Source: a virus
Lineage: Duplodnaviria; Heunggongvirae; Uroviricota; Caudoviricetes
Virus record (IMG/VR): IMGVR_UViG_2548876935_000008
DNA: 24,534 bases
Strand: one strand, 5' to 3'
A model generated the notes under the pieces. It was not told the origin of the DNA. It ran no database searches and saw only the letters and a program-made list of their open reading frames with translations. The position numbers and the translations under genes were made by a program. Below, piece by piece: positions 10,029 to 19,736 of the stretch (the first letter of the stretch is position 1; each line of letters begins with the position of its first letter).

Positions 10029-11795
10029 ATGAACACCACACTGACACCCGCAGATCTCGATCCCCGTCGGCAGGCCATGCTGCTGTACTTTCAGGGATAC
10101 CGCGTAGCCCGCATTGCTGAAATGCTGGGCGAGAAAGTTGCAACCGTTCACAGCTGGAAAAAACGCGACAAGTGGGGTGACTATGGGCCGCTGGATCAGA
10201 TGCAGCTCACCACCGCCGCACGCTACTGCCAGCTCATTATGAAGGAGCACAAAGAAGGGAAAGATGTCAAAGAGATTGACCTGCTGGCGCGCCAGTCGGA
10301 ACGCCACGCGCGGATCGGCAAGTTTAACAATGGCGGCAACGAAGCCGACTTAAACCCTAACGTCGCCAACCGCAACAAAGGCCCGCGCCGTCAGCCGGAA
10401 AAGAATGTCTTCACCGATGAACAGATTGAGAAGCTGGAAGAAATCTTCCATTCCTCCATGTTCAACTACCAGCGCCACTGGTGGGAAGCCGGAAAAACCA
10501 ACCGCATCCGCAATCTGCTGAAGTCACGCCAGATCGGCGCGACCTTTTACTTTGCCCGTGAAGCCCTGATTGACGCTCTGCTTACCGGACGTAACCAGAT
10601 TTTTCTTTCCGCCAGCAAGGCACAGGCCCACGTCTTCAAACAGTACATCATCGACTTTGCCAAAGAAGTGGAGGTGGAGCTGAAAGGCGATCCGATGGTG
10701 CTTCCCAACGGGGCCACACTGTATTTCCTCGGCACCAATGCCCGCACTGCCCAGAGTTACCACGGTAACCTGTATCTGGATGAATATTTCTGGATACCGA
10801 AATTCCAGGAGCTGCGCAAAGTGGCATCCGGTATGGCTATTCACAAAAAATGGCGACAAACCTATTTTTCCACGCCATCCAGCCTGACACACAGTGCTTA
10901 TCCGTTCTGGTCCGGTGCGCTGTTCAACCGTGGGCGCAACAAAGCCGATAAGGTGGACATCGACCTGTCCCACAACAATCTGGCCCCCGGCCTGCTGTGC
11001 GCAGACGGGCAATACCGCCAGATAGTCACCGTGGAAGATGCGGTGCGCGGCGGCTGTAACCTGTTCGACCTCGACCAGTTGCGCATGGAGTACAGCCCGG
11101 ACGAATACCAGAACCTGCTGATGTGTGAGTTCGTAGACGATCTCGCGTCCGTGTTCCCGCTCAGCGAGCTGCAGGCGTGCATGGTGGACAGCTGGGAAGT
11201 CTGGACCGACTTTCATGCACTGGCCCTGCGCCCGTTTGGCTGGCGCGAGGTGTGGATCGGTTATGACCCGGCAAAAGGTACGCAGAACGGCGACAGTGCC
11301 GGATGCGTTGTGGTGGCTCCGCCAGCCGTGCCGGGCGGTAAGTTCCGCATTCTTGAGCGTCACCAGTGGCGCGGGATGGACTTCCGCGCCCAGGCGGACG
11401 CCATCAAAAAACTGACCGAACAGTACAACGTGACCTATATCGGCATCGACTCGACCGGCGTCGGTCACGGGGTTTATGAGAACGTGAAAGCGTTCTTTCC
11501 TGCCGTCCGGGAGTTTGTCTACAACCCCAACGTTAAAAACGCGCTGGTACTCAAGGCCTACGACATTATCAGCCACCGCCGTCTGGAGTTTGACGCCGGG
11601 CACACCGACATTGCGCAATCATTTATGGCAATCCGTCGCGCCACCACCGCCAGCGGCAACCGCCCGACCTATGAAGCCAGCCGCAGCGAAGAAGCCAGCC
11701 ACGCCGATCTGGCCTGGGCAACGATGCACGCACTGTTTAACGAACCGCTGCAGGGCGAATCCGCCAATGCCAGCAATATTGTGGAGATTTTTTGA
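10029..11795 (+). CDS. Terminase large (ATPase) subunit (P2 gpP-like)
   Basis: 588 aa; length, position and sequence character match P2 gpP. Stop overlaps the Q start (ATGA). Confidence 0.9.
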   Translation: MNTTLTPADLDPRRQAMLLYFQGYRVARIAEMLGEKVATVHSWKKRDKWGDYGPLDQMQLTTAARYCQLIMKEHKEGKDVKEIDLLARQSERHARIGKFNNGGNEADLNPNVANRNKGPRRQPEKNVFTDEQIEKLEEIFHSSMFNYQRHWWEAGKTNRIRNLLKSRQIGATFYFAREALIDALLTGRNQIFLSASKAQAHVFKQYIIDFAKEVEVELKGDPMVLPNGATLYFLGTNARTAQSYHGNLYLDEYFWIPKFQELRKVASGMAIHKKWRQTYFSTPSSLTHSAYPFWSGALFNRGRNKADKVDIDLSHNNLAPGLLCADGQYRQIVTVEDAVRGGCNLFDLDQLRMEYSPDEYQNLLMCEFVDDLASVFPLSELQACMVDSWEVWTDFHALALRPFGWREVWIGYDPAKGTQNGDSAGCVVVAPPAVPGGKFRILERHQWRGMDFRAQADAIKKLTEQYNVTYIGIDSTGVGHGVYENVKAFFPAVREFVYNPNVKNALVLKAYDIISHRRLEFDAGHTDIAQSFMAIRRATTASGNRPTYEASRSEEASHADLAWATMHALFNEPLQGESANASNIVEIF

Positions 11796-12829
11796 TGGGA
11801 AAGAGTAAGAAGAACCGCGCTGCGGCGACGAATCAGATCCAGCTTAAAAGTCAAACTACAGCCGAAGCATTCAGCTTCGGCGATCCCGTTCCTGTTCTGG
11901 ACCGCCGAGAATTACTGGACTATGTGGAATGCGTACAGATGGACCGTTGGTATGAGCCGCCCGTCAGCTTTGACGGACTGGCGCGCACCTTCCGCGCTGC
12001 CGTGCATCACAGTTCCCCGATTGCAGTAAAGTGCAACATTCTGACCAGTACCTATATCCCTCACCCGCTGCTCAGCCAGCAGGCTTTTTCACGTTTTGTG
12101 CAGGACTACCTGGTATTTGGTAACGCCTACCTGGAGAAACGCACGAACCGCTTCGGTGAAGTTATCGCCCTTGAGCCTGCGCTGGCAAAATACACCCGAC
12201 GCGGGTTAGACCTAGATACCTACTGGTTTGTGCAATACGGTATGACAACCCAGCCGTATCAGTTCACGAAAGGCAGCATTTTTCATCTGATGGAACCGGA
12301 CATCAACCAGGAGATCTACGGCTTGCCCGGCTATCTTTCTGCCATTCCATCCGCCCTGCTCAACGAATCCGCCACGCTGTTCCGCCGTAAGTATTACATC
12401 AACGGCAGCCATGCAGGCTTCATCATGTACATGACCGACGCCGCGCAGAATCAGGAGGATGTGAACAACCTCCGCAACGCGATGAAAAGCGCCAAAGGTC
12501 CAGGCAACTTCCGCAACCTGTTTATGTACTCGCCTAACGGCAAAAAGGACGGGCTTCAGATCATTCCTCTGTCAGAAGTCGCGGCGAAGGATGAGTTTCT
12601 GAATATCAAAAATGTCAGTCGCGATGACATGATGGCAGCACACCGCGTACCGCCGCAAATGATGGGGATTATGCCGAATAATGTTGGGGGTTTTGGGGAT
12701 GTGGAGAAGGCGAGTCGAGTTTTTGTGCGAAATGAATTGAGGCCACTACAAAAGAGCCTATTAGAGCTGAACAACTGGTTAAAGGAGGATGTAATACATT
12801 TTGAGGATTATAACTTAGATATTCAATAA
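11792..12829 (+). CDS. Portal protein (P2 gpQ-like)
   Basis: 345 aa; length and position (after P, next to the cos side of the genome) match P2 gpQ. Confidence 0.9.
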   Translation: MMGKSKKNRAAATNQIQLKSQTTAEAFSFGDPVPVLDRRELLDYVECVQMDRWYEPPVSFDGLARTFRAAVHHSSPIAVKCNILTSTYIPHPLLSQQAFSRFVQDYLVFGNAYLEKRTNRFGEVIALEPALAKYTRRGLDLDTYWFVQYGMTTQPYQFTKGSIFHLMEPDINQEIYGLPGYLSAIPSALLNESATLFRRKYYINGSHAGFIMYMTDAAQNQEDVNNLRNAMKSAKGPGNFRNLFMYSPNGKKDGLQIIPLSEVAAKDEFLNIKNVSRDDMMAAHRVPPQMMGIMPNNVGGFGDVEKASRVFVRNELRPLQKSLLELNNWLKEDVIHFEDYNLDIQ

Positions 12830-12892: not shown

Positions 12893-13558
12893 TCAAAGCT
12901 CTGAGTCTACAGGCTCATGATAAAGGTTTACAGGGTAGTGTATAACCTCATAATTAAGTTGACTAACAGTGTGAGTATGTTGACTGTAAAAAACCAATGG
13001 GTTTCTCTTACAAGGAGTTATCGAGATAGACTTACAAGCATGAATTCTTGGAGCCGATTTATCTAAATGAGCCTTCCACTTAGTCATCATTTCATTACAT
13101 TTTTTATTACGCGTATATATAATTAACCCACCACTTGCACTGTCTACAGTACCAGTGCTATATCGCTCAGTGAGTTGTGCATACCCTTTAAATAAATAAC
13201 TATATGAACCAGTGTGTTTTTTGGCCTCGCCATGCCAAGTAAATCTATTCAACTTTATTGTTATATCACAATGACCTCGTTGATTATTTTCATGATATGC
13301 TTCAATTCCCATATCTTTATTTTTTATATTTGCCAGTAAAATTAAAGTAAGCTGATCTTCTGTTAAATCAAAATTCAATTTATTTGAATTTTCCTCAATT
13401 GCCTGTACAGCAGAATCAAGCTCAATTCTTACAAACTGTTTGAAGTTCTCATACGACTGGAGAGCAAACCTAACGCGAGTAATAGAAGCATTGATACGCT
13501 GAAGAAAAATATCATTATCAATTTCAGCTAAACTCATTGGTGCAGACATTTTTAACAT
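12893..13558 (-). CDS. Hypothetical protein, cassette gene 3 (221 aa); possible PD-(D/E)xK-like nuclease motif
   Basis: AT-rich ORF; ATG overlaps the upstream stop (TGATG). Contains ...GHCDITIKLNRFTWHGEAKKH..., a D-x12-E-A-K arrangement reminiscent of restriction-endonuclease-fold active sites (inference only). Confidence 0.55.
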   Translation of the reverse strand: MLKMSAPMSLAEIDNDIFLQRINASITRVRFALQSYENFKQFVRIELDSAVQAIEENSNKLNFDLTEDQLTLILLANIKNKDMGIEAYHENNQRGHCDITIKLNRFTWHGEAKKHTGSYSYLFKGYAQLTERYSTGTVDSASGGLIIYTRNKKCNEMMTKWKAHLDKSAPRIHACKSISITPCKRNPLVFYSQHTHTVSQLNYEVIHYPVNLYHEPVDSEL

Positions 13559-13992
13559 CAGACAATATCCTTTAATTTAGATTCATCTAATGTAAAAAAA
13601 GGAAAGACGAAGGACTTATAGTCATACATAATCTCCCCTGTAAATGGGTTTACTAAAGATTGATTAATTTCAGCCTCTATAACATCTTCTAACTCAAGCT
13701 CAATAGGATCATGAAAATCATCAATAAACCAATAATTGAGTTTTAAAAACTCAACCTTTGGACTACAAAGAATTTGTATAGCTGGGTACACAACCTGCTC
13801 ATATGCTTCAGGTTGTATACATCCTTTATAACCATTAACGATACTAAATAAATCTTTATAACTCAGAGCTATATTAGGCGATTTCTTTGCTCTCACACCA
13901 ATTTCATCATACAAATAGCAAGCTAGCGCCCCTATATCAGGGCGCTCTGCACATATTTCTTTGATGATCTGGGGCATATCACCATCCTTCAT
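13558..13992 (-). CDS. Hypothetical acidic protein, cassette gene 2 (about 144 aa)
   Basis: ORF 13558..14004 as tracked uses a TTG; the in-frame ATG at 13992 is preceded by GGAG at good spacing. AT-rich; no recognisable motif. Confidence 0.55.
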   Translation of the reverse strand: MKDGDMPQIIKEICAERPDIGALACYLYDEIGVRAKKSPNIALSYKDLFSIVNGYKGCIQPEAYEQVVYPAIQILCSPKVEFLKLNYWFIDDFHDPIELELEDVIEAEINQSLVNPFTGEIMYDYKSFVFPFFTLDESKLKDIV

Positions 13993-14004
13993 TGCTGACT
14001 CCAA

Positions 14005-15111
14005 TTATAATATCAGCTTTGTGAGGGTTTCGAAATCATCTTTGGATATACATTTGCTTAATATAGCATAATTGACAGGAGAGCACCCACTACCACCTAA
14101 ATGTCTGCGTAATGTTCCTGGAATGATAAGCTCTACACTATCCGCCAATTGCAATTTTGGATTATTCCTATCTACTCTAATTCCAATACGATATAAACCA
14201 ATATTACCTACAGCTTTAATGCCCTCTTTATTAAACAGATCATCACGCAAGTCTTTCTTAGCCACATTTTTCTTTTCCTTATGAGTGGTTCCCTCATAAG
14301 TTAAAAATGACAAATCGAACACCTTATAACTTAAACTTGAATATGGCATTACATTTTGCTTGAAAATTGGCTCAATTAATGGATAAAAATCCTTTTCCGA
14401 TGAATTAAATTGATAACCTGCGCAATTATATAACTCACGAATAAAATTCGTTTTCGCAAAAACGATATTATCACCAACAACATTACCATTAGTATCAATT
14501 AATACATGGATTTTATTTGAAGCTGAATCTAATATACACACATCAAAACACTGACGTTTTTCTTTTCTCTTCGCAATGATTTCATCAAACTGTTTGTATG
14601 CTGCTAACTTTGACGGAGGGACTTTCTCTCTTACAACCAGCTCCCTGATAGATGAAAATACCAAAATAGACTGAGTATTTTGCTTAGAGTAATTAACAAG
14701 CTCAAGTTGATTTTTAATAGCATGCTGTAATTGAACATCATCAACAATCGTTTCGACTAATGATGTTGGTTGCTTCATCATATTCCATTGGAGAGCATAT
14801 CTATCATCAAGTAATTTAATTACTTGACTATCTACAGACAAACTAAATATTGCTTTTTCACCATAAACAACCTGCCCAAAGACTAAATCATTTACACTTG
14901 CAATGATTTTGTCAAATTTTTGCCTATCTTTCTTTTTAAAATCAATGAGGCTTTCTAGTATTTTGTCGTTTGTTGCTTCACGCCCTCTACCTGTAGGTAG
15001 CCCTAAAGAAGCAATAATTGGTCTGGCGATATGCCACGTAAAACGTTCAGTTAAGGCTAAGATCGACTTTAACTCAAAGTCAGAAAGCACCACTGGGACA
15101 CCACTTGTCAT
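14005..15111 (-). CDS. Hypothetical protein, cassette gene 1 (368 aa)
   Basis: Tracked ORF begins at a GTG (15120); the in-frame ATG at 15111 is preceded by AGGTG 6 nt upstream. AT-rich; no Walker A/P-loop seen; no recognised family. Confidence 0.6.
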   Translation of the reverse strand: MTSGVPVVLSDFELKSILALTERFTWHIARPIIASLGLPTGRGREATNDKILESLIDFKKKDRQKFDKIIASVNDLVFGQVVYGEKAIFSLSVDSQVIKLLDDRYALQWNMMKQPTSLVETIVDDVQLQHAIKNQLELVNYSKQNTQSILVFSSIRELVVREKVPPSKLAAYKQFDEIIAKRKEKRQCFDVCILDSASNKIHVLIDTNGNVVGDNIVFAKTNFIRELYNCAGYQFNSSEKDFYPLIEPIFKQNVMPYSSLSYKVFDLSFLTYEGTTHKEKKNVAKKDLRDDLFNKEGIKAVGNIGLYRIGIRVDRNNPKLQLADSVELIIPGTLRRHLGGSGCSPVNYAILSKCISKDDFETLTKLIL

Positions 15112-15271
15112 AACATGCACCTAGTCAACCCAAAAGCAATTGAAAATCGCTCTTGTCTTAATTTTTTCCATCAATATCTAACAAATTACCTTAATGTTGA
15201 AAAAGTTTGCAAGCCATTTGCGTCTAAAAAGTGACTTGACTCAATGTGTTACAAAGCTTAGCGAGCGCGCG

Positions 15272-15290
15272 CTCGTATCCCCGCCACGCC
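15272..15290 (-). other. Candidate cos site (cohesive-end region) of the P2/186-like phage
   Basis: Minus strand reads GGCGTGGCGGGGATACGAG. From memory, P2 and 186 cohesive ends begin GGCGAGGCGGGGAAAGCAC and GGCGTGGCGGGGAAAGCAT. Orientation relative to Q is as in P2. Adjacent perfect palindrome GCGAGCGCGCGCTCG at 15261..15275. Confidence 0.45.
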
Positions 15291-15339
15291 TGCCCGCTTT
15301 ATGTAGTAGTTTTCATGCAGGTGCATGATCTACGCAAAA

Positions 15340-15359
15340 GCCCGCCAGTTCTGGCGGGC
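15340..15359 (-). terminator. Rho-independent terminator downstream of the membrane-protein operon
   Basis: GCCCGCCAG-tt-CTGGCGGGC perfect stem; on the minus strand it is followed by TTTTGCG, just past the stop of the 280-aa ORF. Confidence 0.55.
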
Positions 15360-15407
15360 CTTAGCAAAAACGATCCTCAAACGATCATGCGATCTCATGC
15401 AGCATAG

Positions 15408-16250
15408 TCATGCACGATCATTTGACTCAGCATCTGCTGCACGCTTGCTGCGCGAAGATGCACTTTTACTACCAATCTTTCGACAGTTCTTTCTATCCCT
15501 GGCTTCATTTTCTTTAAATTTGTTATATGTCTCAGTATCAAAAAACGAAATTGTTTCAACCTCATCTTTTGGTATGAGCACACGGAAATCTTCGATATTA
15601 AGCCGAGACATTCCACTTATCACACCACTATCAAGATAATGTTGGTGATAGTTAGTCGTGATACTAATCGTTAGATCATCTTTATCCCGATATCCGCTTA
15701 ACATCGGGAGAAGTTCAAGGTGTTCTGAAAGCCCGTTTTCTAACGCCGGACAAGTAACAAGACCAACATAGATTTTGCGAGACGACAGAGTTGCTATGAT
15801 CGGAAACTGTCTTGCAGACGCTTCCATGAGTAATGATTCGAAAGCGTTATTACCCACAGCTTTAGCTAAGGCATCCCAGCGACGATCTCCACGTGATGTG
15901 CGTAACTTATTTCCAAAACCTGAAATCGCAGCGAGAACAATTGAAATCATAACCCATGCTATCTGTTTGATTTCATTTATTCTTTGAAGTTTGTCTTTCG
16001 ATGAAGACAACATGCCATTAAAACTGTCAGGTGTTAGATTCAAGGCATTAGCCAGCCAACGAAACCCTCCGCTGACGTTCAAAATAAAGGTGAAAAAACC
16101 GCCAAGGAGAAAAAAAACGATACCCCAGGCAGCCACAAAAAAATAAGCGTCCCAGCCGTTGGAACGCTTATATCGGTATCTTGTTGAAAGTGATAGGTTT
16201 ACATAAATAAAACCACTAACCAAAATCACTGCTAAAAGTAATGTTGCCAT
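15408..16250 (-). CDS. Hypothetical membrane protein (280 aa; about three N-terminal transmembrane helices plus a cytoplasmic domain)
   Basis: Hydrophobic segments MATLLLAVILVSGFIYV, FFVAAWGIVFFLLGGFFTFIL and IAWVMISIVLAAISGF; soluble C-terminal half of unknown fold. ATG overlaps the stop of the upstream 71-aa gene (TAATG). AT-rich. Confidence 0.6.
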   Translation of the reverse strand: MATLLLAVILVSGFIYVNLSLSTRYRYKRSNGWDAYFFVAAWGIVFFLLGGFFTFILNVSGGFRWLANALNLTPDSFNGMLSSSKDKLQRINEIKQIAWVMISIVLAAISGFGNKLRTSRGDRRWDALAKAVGNNAFESLLMEASARQFPIIATLSSRKIYVGLVTCPALENGLSEHLELLPMLSGYRDKDDLTISITTNYHQHYLDSGVISGMSRLNIEDFRVLIPKDEVETISFFDTETYNKFKENEARDRKNCRKIGSKSASSRSKRAADAESNDRA

Positions 16251-16465
16251 TATCTGGTTCTATTAGTTTTCTCTTTTACAGTGCTCGTTTTGATGCCTTC
16301 AAGCTTATCCATCTGTGCCTTGATGGCATCCATTGCTCTTTTGTTAGACAAGTCTACGGACACAAAACCATCTTTACTAAGATTGAGTTTGTCCTGGTTC
16401 TCTTTAAGAACCCTTGCCAGACGTTCAACTGGGTTACCCAGGCTAAATGCGGCGATGCTTGACAT
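16250..16465 (-). CDS. Hypothetical small protein (71 aa), translationally coupled to the membrane protein
   Basis: ATG at 16465 preceded by a strong Shine-Dalgarno (AAGGGGGAG); hydrophilic, Lys-rich; no recognised motif. Confidence 0.5.
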   Translation of the reverse strand: MSSIAAFSLGNPVERLARVLKENQDKLNLSKDGFVSVDLSNKRAMDAIKAQMDKLEGIKTSTVKEKTNRTR

Positions 16466-16735
16466 AACTCCCCCTTTTCACATGGCGCGGAAGTCTACAC
16501 TCCGACGCCTACAACCTCAACAGATTATCTTTAAAATTTAGACAACAATATCATCTGTTGATTTCGTTACTTAAACTTAAGTTCAATGCGCTCGATCATG
16601 CAAGTGGTTTCTTAAGAACTGTTAATTTCCTGGCATATATAGTGGTTAAGGTAACAAATTGACACTAACGCCTCGCATAGCTCGTTGTTCAACCTTGCTG
16701 ACGCCAGAAGCAAGTTCAGACGCCAGCAACGTTTC

Positions 16736-16969
16736 TTAATGCAGCCAGCTGTCGTCTTCCCACACCTTCTGCATAATTTTCATCACTTGCTTCCTTTCTT
16801 CGTCCAGTTGCAGTCCAGTCAGTTCCACACCGTTAGAGCTACCTTTGCGGATGCGAATTACCGTTTTTGGATATAGGGGGCGCAGATTGCGGTAAAGCTC
16901 GGATTCAAGGGCGTCCAGGGTAGACTGGCTAATCTTCTGCTCTTTATCGATCATTATTTCAATGCGCAT
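16736..16969 (-). CDS. dinI: DinI-family protein (DNA-damage-inducible protein I-like)
   Basis: ORF 16736..17041; start chosen at ATG 16969 (preceded by GAGGTGA). MRIEIMIDKEQKISQSTLDALESELYRNLRPLYPKTVIRIRKGSSNGVELTGLQLDEERKQVMKIMQKVWEDDSW resembles E. coli DinI (MRIEVTI...AL..EL.RR...FPD....V.......L.V.G...E.K..I..ILQE.WE..D.W). Confidence 0.7.
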   Translation of the reverse strand: MRIEIMIDKEQKISQSTLDALESELYRNLRPLYPKTVIRIRKGSSNGVELTGLQLDEERKQVMKIMQKVWEDDSWLH

Positions 16970-16979
16970 AAAAGTCACC

Positions 16980-17168
16980 TCAGCTGATGACATCCATTGA
17001 GCGGTTGTATTCGTGGGTTCTGATTTTTGCCATGAGTTCATCTGTCAGTTCAGAAACCCACTGCAAAGCCAGCCCCTTCTCTTCATCACTACACTCACTA
17101 GCCGCTACAAGCTTAAGAAAAAAATCAATGCGCTGGAGCTTCAAAGACTCCAAAAAATAGTCCTGCAT
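16980..17168 (-). CDS. Small SOS-regulated protein, putative Tum-like antirepressor (62 aa)
   Basis: ORF 16980..17270; start chosen at ATG 17168 (MQDYFLESLKLQ...), preceded by AGGAGGAAAG. Sits directly downstream of a LexA box and upstream of a DinI-like gene, the arrangement of the 186 tum operon. Function inferred from context only. Confidence 0.45.
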   Translation of the reverse strand: MQDYFLESLKLQRIDFFLKLVAASECSDEEKGLALQWVSELTDELMAKIRTHEYNRSMDVIS

Positions 17169-17211
17169 CTTTCCTCCTATGACACCACAAGCAATACTGT
17201 ATGTACAACCA

Positions 17212-17227
17212 CTGTTTATATTTACAG
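17212..17227. promoter_or_regulatory. LexA box (SOS operator), CTGT-N8-ACAG, in the promoter of the tum/dinI-like operon
   Basis: Seen directly: CTGTTTATATTTACAG, a perfect match to the CTGT-N8-ACAG consensus, 44-59 bp upstream of the ATG at 17168 and overlapping AT-rich -10-like hexamers. A partial second site (CTGTATGTACAACCAC) abuts it at 17197..17212. Confidence 0.6.
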
Positions 17228-17321
17228 TATATAATAATCTTACTGATGTAAAACGTTTTTTTACGTTCATCAGCCTGATATGCCTGGTATTATTAAGAGC
17301 ACGAATTGTTAACCCGCGTAA

Positions 17322-19736
17322 TTAATACAGGTTTCGCCACTTATCATCTTCCTGCAAACGCTGGTTCCGATAGAAGATACGCAGGCCTGCTCCTGACGGA
17401 ATACTGCCGCCGCGAAGGAGTAAATCGACCTCTTTCTCGCTGCCATCAAATCCTCTGGACTTCAGTTCATAGACGAGCTGCTGTCGCTGATGGTCTGTAA
17501 TTCGCTGTTTGTAGTCTTTACGCCGTTTCGGTTTCACCAGGCGTAACCTTGCAGCCAGTTCCCGGCGCTCTTTTTTGCTCATACTGTGCAGGTAATCGTG
17601 CAACTCCTTGTCATCCATGCGGGTAATGTCCGTCCTGGTATCCCCATCAGCTGATTTGTCTTTCCCTTGTTGGTTCAAATTTTCAGCAAGGGGACAGTTA
17701 TTGCCACGAGTCCAAGGGGCGCAAGCGCCCTGGTCGGCTGCCGCCTCCTGAACGTCAACGGCCTTACGAACTATTTTCCACTTCACTGCATGAGTGCAGA
17801 TCTTGCCCTCTGCAATGGGTGACCAGATGCCATAAATACGAATACCGTGATCACCATAGGCGGTCGGCTCTTCGTTGATTTCATAAGCGGTTCTGATCAA
17901 GTGATATTTGCGGGGAACCAGTACGCCGCCCTGCTTCATGATGTAGGTGGCAAAACAACCAGCATCAGCAGCAGCCAGGATGGCATCAAGGCGCGGGTTA
18001 TCCAGTACCGGCGCACCTGCTTTTTTGTCACCCTGTTGCCTTGCCGCCTGACCAGCCAGCAATCGCAGTTCACGGTAAGCCTGACGCCCCGGAATGCCAA
18101 AGAAGCGGAATTGCTGAACACGATGCAGAGACGCCCAGGCATTAACGTATTCAGCGTTATCACGCAGGGATTTACCCGTTTCCTTACTGATCTCGCCAGC
18201 CAGACCACGCCCGTCAATATTCTTACTGATATATTTCGCAATGTAGCTTGTCGGCGTTCCTTTGCGCGGGTTTATCAGCTCAGACTTAAAGCGTGGCCCC
18301 GTGTTATTGCCCAGCTCCTCGCGGTCTTCACGGATGGCAAACTTACGCAACAATGCAGTAATGGCGCGGCGGTCTTTTTTGCGCATGAAACACAACAGGT
18401 GCCAGTGAACTGTGCCGTCATGATGCGGCTCAGCCACCCGCACGCCATACCAGCGCAACCCGGCTTTGTGCATAGCCTTACGAAATGCAGCAAACATGCC
18501 GACCAGATAATCGCTGCTTTGTCTTACTGTCGCGTTGGTCCAGGTCGGGTTTGGCCTACCGTTATTTAGCGTGGAATGGAAACGTGACGGACAAGTGATG
18601 GTGTAGAAAACGGCGCAGTCACCACGCATTTCCGCGATAAGCTCCAGGCCTTTAACACAGGCCATCATCTCGTTGCGGCGATGCGCCGGGTTGCTGCTGC
18701 TGGCGTTTACCACATCCTCCATGTTCAGCGTGTCGCCGTCTTCGTTCACCAGTTCATGAGAACGGAAAAACTCCAGCGACTTACGGCGCTGCTCACGTTT
18801 ATGCATCACGGCTTCATAGCTGACATAGGGAGATGCTTTTTTGCTGACCAGGCAGACAGCACGCAACTGCTCTTCCCGCCATTCGCAACGCATCTTCCAT
18901 AATTTCCGATACCACCAGTCGGCGCACAGCATACGCGCCAGCGACCCCGGAATGAGTTCATAGGGCACGGGTTTACGGCGGTTTCTTTTCCGGCGGAGTT
19001 GCTCAAACGCAGGCGGTATGACATCCAGTCGCAGGGTTTCTGCTGCCACCTTTTCCCATGTCTTGCGGATTTCTTCTGGCTTAACGTCATCGGTGGCATA
19101 CAAATCACCACAAGCGGCATCAAGGCACATGCTCATATGCGCAGCGACAAGGATAGACAGGCGCTTCACCTGATCCTGACTCATTTCAGGCAGGATAAGC
19201 AGGCCATCCAGCCCTTCATGGCTTGCCATAAAGCGAAAAGAAGTGGATAGCTGACAGTCGCGGACATGCTCCAGTCGTTCCAGACATGGCTTAATCGTCT
19301 CACGCAAATAGCGGGAATAAGCCTTTGGCCTGCCCAGGCTGCTGAAATATTCAATACGTTGCATCAGCGGCTTGCTGATATGGGAAGGCTGGGCATTGAC
19401 GTCAGCCAGAATGACCATGTCTGGATTAAAACGCTGCTGCTCATGCGCCAGCTTTGCCCTGCTAATGAGCTTATCCTGCTCCATTTCGCGCTGGACAGGA
19501 TCACGGGATTCATTAAAGAAATAACGCTCCCAGACCTGATCACTCAGTGCCTCGCGGCGCAGTTGTTCCTGCTCGTTATCGGCAGCGTACAGAGTGATCA
19601 GGTTTGAAAGTGCAGAAACCGGCGCAACTTCCGCCGGGTCCTGATAAGGGTTAATAGCCTTTTTCGGGCTGTTCCATGAGAATGCTGCGGCGACCTCGTT
19701 AAAGCCGCTGCAGTTGTTCATATCATCATGGCTCAT
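17322..19736 (-). CDS. Replication initiation protein (P2 gpA-like rolling-circle endonuclease)
   Basis: 804 aa; position between the early-region genes and the cos-proximal cargo as in P2/186. Contains an HUH-type stretch ([10 protein letters not shown]). Stop of the upstream dam gene overlaps the start. Confidence 0.8.

Follow-up and report, generated by a model that had tools for sequence, protein, structure and literature searches.

A two-gene membrane cassette beside cos in a P2-like prophage, a candidate defence or exclusion module

The window analysed here, a stretch of 24,534 nucleotides (nt) from the Caudoviricetes record IMGVR_UViG_2548876935_000008, belongs to a P2-like prophage and reads in the reverse orientation with respect to the P2 map. 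Between dinI and the cohesive-end site cos it carries two coupled genes, which encode a small protein of 71 amino acids (aa) and a membrane protein of 280 aa. Genome comparisons show a self-contained two-gene moron cassette that moves horizontally between unrelated temperate phages. We propose that the prophage uses the pair against other phages, for defence or exclusion at the inner membrane, a proposal to which we give an even chance of being correct. Below we describe the cassette and its mobility, the two protein families and an RNA hairpin embedded in the membrane gene, before weighing this proposal against its rivals.

A cassette precisely inserted between dinI and cos

The two genes and the elements that accompany them are listed here by window position:

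15408-16250, minus strand: gene for the 280-aa membrane protein, an open reading frame (ORF)
16250-16465, minus strand: gene for the 71-aa small partner, an ORF
16468-16474, minus strand: Shine-Dalgarno site GGGGGAG, read directly from the sequence
16466-16664, minus strand: cassette leader of ~200 nt, from alignment with ST15-OXA48phi14.1, Ec1115 and the pair-less phage 500465-1
16517-16561: inverted repeat TCAACAGATTATCTT / AATATCATCTGTTGA, from a repeat search and alignment
16133-16171, minus strand: intragenic terminator-like element from the terminator scan, within codons ~26-40 of the membrane gene
15330-15359, minus strand: Rho-independent terminator, from the sequence and its inverted repeat, ~50 nt past the stop codon of the 280-aa gene
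15264-15416: conserved cos-region backbone block, from a distant blastn search (87 P2-like phage records)
15272-15290, minus strand: cos-like 19-mer GGCGTGGCGGGGATACGAG

The two ORFs overlap by a single base, as TAATG, and the small gene is preceded by AAAAGGGGGAGTTATG, which holds a G-rich Shine-Dalgarno site four bases from the ATG. Both genes are carried by E. coli Ec1115, where RefSeq has them as hypothetical proteins (WP_000094764 and WP_000212611). GC makes up 40.9% of the pair, compared with 53-55% in gene A and in the terminase and portal genes. When the window was compared with the copy in the Klebsiella phage ST15-OXA48phi14.1 (~80% nucleotide identity), the large gene gave a ratio of nonsynonymous to synonymous substitution rates (dN/dS) of 0.05 and the small gene one of 0.22, values which mark both as real genes under constraint. 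The cos site was located by conservation, through the backbone block, and by the termini of phage records, those of the linear records PHB48, Midge and SI22 mapping to window positions ~15262-15282; the pair therefore lies between dinI and cos. The 19-mer GGCGTGGCGGGGATACGAG resembles the P2/186 cohesive end; the exact P2 and 186 cos 19-mers had no match within three mismatches. The slot of the pair is the one that tin and old occupy in P2.

A first-pass annotation of the window, made from its letters alone, had singled out this pair at the old/tin-equivalent position, and its description holds in nearly every respect: both ORFs are found where it had put them, on the minus strand and in agreement with RefSeq for Ec1115, the TAATG overlap, the AT-rich composition and the strong Shine-Dalgarno site are all present, and the pair sits between dinI/gene A and cos. 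The one correction concerns the clean terminator that it had noted after the genes. This GC-rich element, GCCCGCCAG-AA-CTGGCGGGC followed by TTTTGCGT, does exist, and is not among the elements listed by the automatic terminator scan. It is conserved in ~700 E. coli genomes and in 49-87 phage records, and in pair-less phages it directly follows dinI, as seen in the alignment with 500465-1; on these comparisons the terminator belongs to the conserved cos-flanking backbone and not to the cassette.

The same alignment with 500465-1 defines the junctions of the insertion. On the left, the shared backbone extends up to ...GCGAGGCGTTAG, at ~16665; on the right, it starts again at ~15416 with GTGCATGACTATGC..., a point within the final codons of the 280-aa gene. 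The cassette is therefore ~1.25 kb long, consists of the ~200-nt leader and the two genes, and is precisely inserted into a conserved backbone. The leader spans the distance from the left junction (backbone ...GCGAGGCGTTAG / cassette TGTCAATTTG...) to the start codon and includes a TATATA element kept in the E. coli and Klebsiella copies. Its predicted RNA fold is ordinary (z = -0.5) and has no match in Rfam. The inverted repeat of the leader, 50-95 nt ahead of the small gene, has 15-nt arms separated by a 15-nt spacer. The Klebsiella phage copy retains the CAACAG...CTGTTG core; the repeat could be an operator or an RNA stem.

The pair recurs in unrelated phages

The pair was found in 52 of 5,426 complete E. 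coli genomes, whereas the flanking cos block is present in ~700. E. coli TUM13066 has the same backbone as the window and the same neighbouring three-gene block without the pair. In the P2-like Salmonella phages SEN4 and SEN5, a version 48% identical to that of the window occupies the right end. Further copies are located in the nin region of a lambdoid prophage, beside hok, in Enterobacter prophages between the lambda-type tail genes K and I/J, in the Cronobacter phage phiES15 between int and attP, and near integrases in several chromosomes; in each of these five settings, that of SEN4 and SEN5 included, both genes are homologous. These other settings are classic moron positions for accessory genes expressed by the lysogen, and in the P2-like prophages the pair behaves as a variable gene set between gpA and gpQ, next to cos and independent of the backbone. 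The idea of an accessory module is supported: the pair is discrete, it is present or absent independently, its neighbours include varying genes of the defence type, it takes up moron positions in unrelated phages, its membrane protein is a predicted defence gene of DefensePredictor, and nothing connects it with lysis or packaging.

The far side of cos varies as well. Between cos and the portal gene, Ec1115 holds a DUF4062 gene, and the Klebsiella phage ST15-OXA48phi14.1 holds a SEFIR gene with a small ORF. These different contents indicate that the P2 hotspot comprises two independently variable slots with cos between them.

A three-helix membrane protein with a predicted Sm/Hfq-like domain

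The 280-aa protein has three hydrophobic segments, at residues ~2-20, 35-58 and 96-113, and AlphaFold2 (AF2) predicts helices at 2-19, 33-60 and 87-119. Basic stretches come after the first and the third transmembrane (TM) helix (RYRYKRS and KLRTSRGDRR, respectively). Because these Arg/Lys-rich stretches follow TM1 and TM3, the protein fits an N-out/C-in topology, with a predicted periplasmic loop of ~37 aa and a cytoplasmic part of ~165 aa. The predicted layout is as follows:

N-terminal half: TM1, conserved basic cytoplasmic loop (RYRYKRSNGWDAY), TM2, variable ~37-aa periplasmic loop, variable TM3
C-terminal half: two linker helices, Sm/LSm/Hfq-like beta-barrel (~136-236), helix, variable basic tail

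In the AlphaFold model, built with 28 homologues and with a mean predicted local distance difference test (pLDDT) of 77, a helix is followed by a bent beta-barrel at residues ~136-236. The cytoplasmic domain has the N-terminal helix and the strongly bent five-stranded antiparallel sheet of the Sm fold, and the model thus assigns it a predicted Sm/Hfq-like fold. A structure search of BFVD returned Sm-like matches, weak ones only. At the sequence level, the 280-aa protein has no Pfam match, neither to the LSM nor to the Hfq profile, and lacks the Sm1 and Sm2 motifs; a profile search against the sequences of the PDB gave nothing. Membership in the Hfq family was rejected, as hhalign found no similarity between the 280-aa family and E. 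coli Hfq (P = 0.43), and membership in the MscS family was rejected in the same way, by comparison with E. coli MscS. In addition, the protein has no match to the MS_channel profile and no conserved pore-lining TM3.

The barrel carries the motifs SRKxYVG and PxLSGYRDKD. Residues that are invariant throughout the family lie in two regions: the hairpin formed by TM1, the loop and TM2 (G13, R29, G32, Y36 and G43) and the barrel (K159-x-Y-x-G163, P182-x-x-S-G-Y-R188, Y201 and F237-D238). The parts of the protein that vary freely, and that evolve fastest across the family, are the periplasmic loop, TM3 and the C-terminal tail. We also observed that the 143-position profile phrog_23864 matches the Sm-like part alone (residues ~124-247 of the 280-aa protein) and that tblastn matches in the Pseudomonas phages vB_Pae_U5 and U6 are confined to residues ~127-252. 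These partial matches suggest that free-standing soluble versions of the Sm-like domain may exist in other phages.

A consistent small partner in a very large family

The 71-aa protein is hydrophilic and basic, with a grand average of hydropathy (GRAVY) of -0.59 and an isoelectric point (pI) of 9.9, and AF2 predicts a helix / beta-hairpin / helix fold (pLDDT 75). In the conserved core, LNLSKDGFVSVDLSN is followed by a helix. It matches phrog_9843, a PHROGs family of unknown function. Many NCBI and UniRef records label the protein 'multidrug ABC transporter ATPase'; as its 71 residues contain no ATPase motif, this is evidently a misannotation that has spread from record to record.

When 1.84 billion representative proteins were searched with a profile of the 280-aa family (E ≤ 1e-3), 2,907 clusters at 50% identity were retrieved, in Gammaproteobacteria, Alphaproteobacteria and Acidobacteria; among the 150 family clusters listed, most are 225-320 aa long and align almost from end to end. 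In species genomes, loci of the family were located in Enterobacterales, Aeromonas, Vibrio, Shewanella, Pseudomonas, Asticcacaulis, Novosphingobium and Acidobacteria. In ~75 of 80 loci the large gene is tightly coupled to a small ORF that ends within a few bases of its start. The 71-aa profile recognises 30 of these ~75 small upstream ORFs; the remaining ones have the same size and the same pattern of helix, 'VVGRGTxxID' hairpin and helix, and this hairpin aligns in register with 'SKDGFVSVDL' (hhalign P = 0.003). Furthermore, the divergence of the small protein is correlated with that of the large one (r = 0.73). These data argue that the pairing of the small protein with the membrane protein is ancient and consistent.

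Pfam, NCBIfam and PADLOC hold no match for either protein of the window, and PHROGs gives families of unknown function only. The same emptiness extends to distant relatives: ten of the large protein had no Pfam match and no PADLOC match at E ≤ 0.01, and for ten of the small protein the scans of the family libraries gave nothing meaningful. The first-pass annotation had been unable to name a family for either protein, and rightly so; it had also described a hydrophilic 71-aa protein next to a three-TM protein with a cytoplasmic domain of ~170 aa, close to the ~165 aa given above. The Sm/Hfq-like fold of the cytoplasmic domain, the very large two-gene family and the intragenic hairpin described next were absent from it.

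A conserved terminator-like hairpin within the membrane gene

Within the first 120 nt of the membrane gene lies a hairpin composed of a 12-bp stem (ATAAGCGTTCCA / TGGGACGCTTAT) and a 5-nt loop and followed by TTTTTTT. The codons involved, ~26-40, encode the conserved loop YKRSNGWDAYFFV. The stem is invariant at the nucleotide level, all synonymous positions included, in homologues whose proteins are 45-57% identical. In the Enterobacterales/Aeromonas branch its stability exceeds that of randomisations with synonymous codons (z from -2 to -4.6), whereas the same resampling found no such hairpin in the Vibrio and Pseudomonas branches. In the copies from Aeromonas and Erwinia, both partners of a pair have changed in a compensatory way (U.G to G-C, U-A to C-G), which also alters the encoded residues. 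Over 14 distinct sequences, 88% of the cells are paired, and three pairs have changed on both sides, compared with 0.4 in shuffled alignments (1/500). The conservation at synonymous sites and the compensatory changes suggest that the hairpin may act as a transcription attenuator or in dosage control, which would keep the membrane protein scarce relative to its partner. The hairpin is a new finding of the present analysis.

A proposed role in defence or exclusion, and its rivals

Several lines of evidence lead us to favour a defence or exclusion module. The first is the locus, as the gpA-gpQ region of P2 is a cos-adjacent defence hotspot (Rousset et al. 2022, PMC9122126). Table S5 of that study lists the exact arrangement of the window pair and also has the pair beside SieB, DUF4062, PIN_12 and DUF262/DUF1524 (Rousset et al. 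2022, PMC9122126). The second is that DefensePredictor scores WP_000212611.1 at a mean log-odds of 5.10 and classes it as a 'Predicted novel defense gene' (DeWeirdt et al. 2026, PMC13092281), the cut-off being 4 as quoted in PMC13586616. The third is the mobility of the pair as a moron. The fourth is its neighbourhood: the nearest neighbours of the family loci include integrases, GPA and portal genes, single matches to bSEFIR, a CBASS cyclase, AbiLi, SspH, AriA, DpdF and MADS are found among them, and defence genes are in modest excess. The last is the coupled design, with its apparent dosage control, to which the ancient pairing, the predicted fold and topology and the pattern of conservation can be added.

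A number of observations weigh against this proposal. Defence genes make up only a modest fraction of the nearest neighbours of the family loci, and many distant members of the family lie among ordinary chromosomal genes. PADLOC-DB v2.0.0, which covers Rex, Kiwa, Abi and the Vassallo PD systems among others, has no match to either protein at E ≤ 0.1, and neither the window proteins nor the ten distant family members show homology to known defence proteins in PADLOC. The predicted fold of the 71-aa protein had no significant neighbour in a structural search. In the minus-strand promoter scan of the leader no sigma-70 site passed, which bears on expression in the lysogen. Searches of the literature by accession, PHROG id and keyword returned no characterisation or phenotype of the pair, and it is not among the tested systems of Rousset 2022 or DeWeirdt 2026, nor in the supplements of Vassallo 2022, as far as the accessible parts of these sources extend; the accessible part of Rousset Table S5B, in a study with 169 curated systems, likewise holds no sequence of the pair. 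Nor is the pair related in sequence to DS-13, a TM system of two genes described by DeWeirdt et al.

If the pair does act in defence or exclusion, it might work as follows. The Sm-like domains would oligomerise into a ring under the membrane, as in Sm, Hfq and the beta-domain of MscS, so that 18-21 TM helices would be gathered. The core for sensing or gating would be formed by the TM1/basic loop/TM2 hairpin and the barrel pocket (K-x-Y-x-G ... P-x-x-S-G-Y-R ... Y ... F-D). The small partner, produced in step through translational coupling, would bind the complex as a regulator or sensor. An infection cue, for example nucleic acid on its way into the cell or a phage protein at the membrane, would switch the complex, which would then either depolarise the membrane, causing abortive infection, or block genome entry. 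The intragenic hairpin would hold the membrane protein scarce compared with its partner, an arrangement that fits a product harmful in excess. A far more specific version, which we consider unlikely, is that of a new membrane immune device: a three-TM-tethered Sm/Hfq-like ring would directly detect nucleic acid, or a phage protein, where the genome enters and, together with the ~70-aa partner, gate a pore or block injection, while its dosage would be set by the embedded terminator, with read-through that could depend on the coupling of transcription and translation, which would make the hairpin an attenuator sensitive to phage-induced host shut-off.

The same layout could suit a toxin-antitoxin or addiction module, in which a membrane-damaging toxin and a small upstream antitoxin mainly stabilise the prophage. 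The order of the genes is type II-like, in that the small gene leads, overlaps the large one by 1 nt and is translationally coupled to it, and a small upstream gene that overlaps or abuts the next one, as TAATG in the window, is the rule in ~75 of 80 loci; the intragenic hairpin would raise the ratio of small to large protein, and the lambdoid copy of the pair adjoins hok. We nevertheless find this improbable, given that no toxin or antitoxin domain of any family in Pfam, NCBIfam or PADLOC is recognisable in either protein, and that in the small protein, a basic one, no DNA-binding antitoxin domain can be recognised. The overlap with a defence role is heavy in any case, since many toxin-antitoxin systems act as defences.

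Superinfection exclusion through blocked genome entry, without killing, is improbable to a like degree. Here the periplasmic loop would hinder the injection machinery, or the Sm-like ring would capture the DNA end. The pattern of evolution would suit such a role, change being fastest in periplasmic loop 2, in TM3 and in the C-terminal tail, with conservation of the TM1-TM2 hairpin and of the barrel, but weak constraint alone would also give variable loops. The fold is often a nucleic-acid-binding one, the protein is predicted to be anchored in the inner membrane, and the prophage hotspot is the tin/old site of P2. Against this stand the lack of similarity to SieA, SieB, Imm, Sp or Cor and the absence of a nuclease or other effector domain.

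Lysogenic conversion unrelated to phages, in which a small channel, of the MscS type or another, or an Hfq-like RNA-binding protein anchored in the membrane would alter the physiology of the host, we regard as quite doubtful. The three TM helices, the N-out/C-in topology, the Sm-like beta domain and the length of ~280 aa resemble E. coli MscS, and the many distant members among ordinary chromosomal genes would fit such a role.

An ordinary phage role, for instance as an accessory to lysis or packaging, would account for a small membrane protein encoded beside cos in the window, and homology to such a function had been named in the first-pass annotation as a finding that would undo the idea of exclusion; no holin, spanin or terminase family match was found, the pair does not adjoin lysis genes in the phage contexts examined, the same pair lies far from cos and lysis genes in the nin region, the tail operon and the int-attP interval, and otherwise identical P2-like prophages such as that of TUM13066 lack it, so that a lysis or packaging role was rejected on context and the chance of this explanation is close to nil.

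The rest of the window

The remaining features of the window are these:

minus strand: capsid and scaffold genes
10029-11795, plus strand: terminase gene
11792-12829, plus strand: portal gene
12893-15120, minus strand: three-gene block, 34% GC
16736-17041: dinI
between dinI and gene A: a small ORF
17322-19736: replication gene A

The three-gene block lies between cos and the portal gene and encodes co-directional proteins of 221, 148 and 371 aa. Pfam and PADLOC have no match to them, and PHROGs gives only families of unknown function. DefensePredictor gives the largest, WP_021580613, a log-odds of 8.4 and calls it a 'predicted novel defense gene'. Since TUM13066 carries the block without the pair, the block is a separate candidate system; it might correspond to the three-hypothetical-protein system of Rousset, which gives protection against P1.

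When the longest ORFs are taken (window positions 16736-17270), the 101-aa ORF of dinI overlaps the 96-aa ORF upstream of it. The RefSeq versions of these two genes are shorter, 77 aa and 62 aa, and the match to the DinI domain is confined to residues 38-100 of the 101-aa ORF; the true starts of dinI and of its upstream ORF are probably internal.

Significance and comparison with known systems

Were the pair a true defence or exclusion system, it would add a widespread family of ~2,900 clusters that current defence finders do not recognise, and it would provide the first functional context known to us for a membrane-anchored Sm/Hfq-like domain. The ~1.25-kb size of the cassette and the natural E. 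coli prophage variants with and without it make the proposal directly testable. The hairpin is a compact regulatory RNA structure overlaid on a conserved protein motif, and it offers a handle on the restraint of a potentially harmful membrane protein.

As a kind, a two-gene membrane module in a prophage hotspot is already known. No description of the protein families, of the membrane-anchored Sm-like domain, of the consistent small partner or of the embedded hairpin was found in the literature searched. In P2 the corresponding slot is held by the phage-exclusion genes tin and old (Rousset et al. 2022, PMC9122126). The window pair shares with them the interval from gene A to cos, and the proteins are unrelated. 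Neither of the two P2 products is a membrane protein: Tin, which is soluble, targets the single-stranded-DNA-binding protein of T-even phages, and Old is a nuclease of the ATPase/TOPRIM type.

With regard to the Sm-like domain, the 280-aa protein has no sequence match to the Sm/LSm/Hfq superfamily, WYL-type sensor domains included, and its motifs SRKxYVG and PxLSGYRDKD differ from theirs. We know of no characterised Sm/Hfq protein fused to three TM helices. In architecture there is a likeness to the MscS channels, which share three N-terminal TM helices, the N-out/C-in topology, an Sm-like beta domain and a similar length. CBASS Cap15 and Pycsar PycTM resemble the 280-aa protein in combining an N-terminal bundle of TM helices with a small cytoplasmic beta-barrel, and the 'Hydrolase + 3TM' and '2TM + 1TM + TIR' systems of Rousset resemble the cassette in their P2/P4 hotspot location; unlike all of these, the window cassette lacks an enzyme that would produce a signal, be it cyclase, TIR or hydrolase, and PADLOC recognises none of it.

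Close counterparts in design are the two-component prophage defences RexAB of lambda and gp30/gp31 of the mycobacteriophages Butters and Sbash. In each of these a soluble partner goes together with a multi-pass inner-membrane protein, at an accessory prophage position, and the proposed outcome, membrane depolarisation or exclusion, is the same as that put forward here. They show no sequence or profile similarity to the window pair, for which PADLOC is empty. The pair also departs from them in build: its soluble partner is only 71 aa long, and its membrane protein has a large cytoplasmic domain with the predicted Sm-like fold. Unlike the RexAB, Butters and Sbash type, the modelled 280-aa protein may therefore combine the roles of sensor and effector in a single chain.

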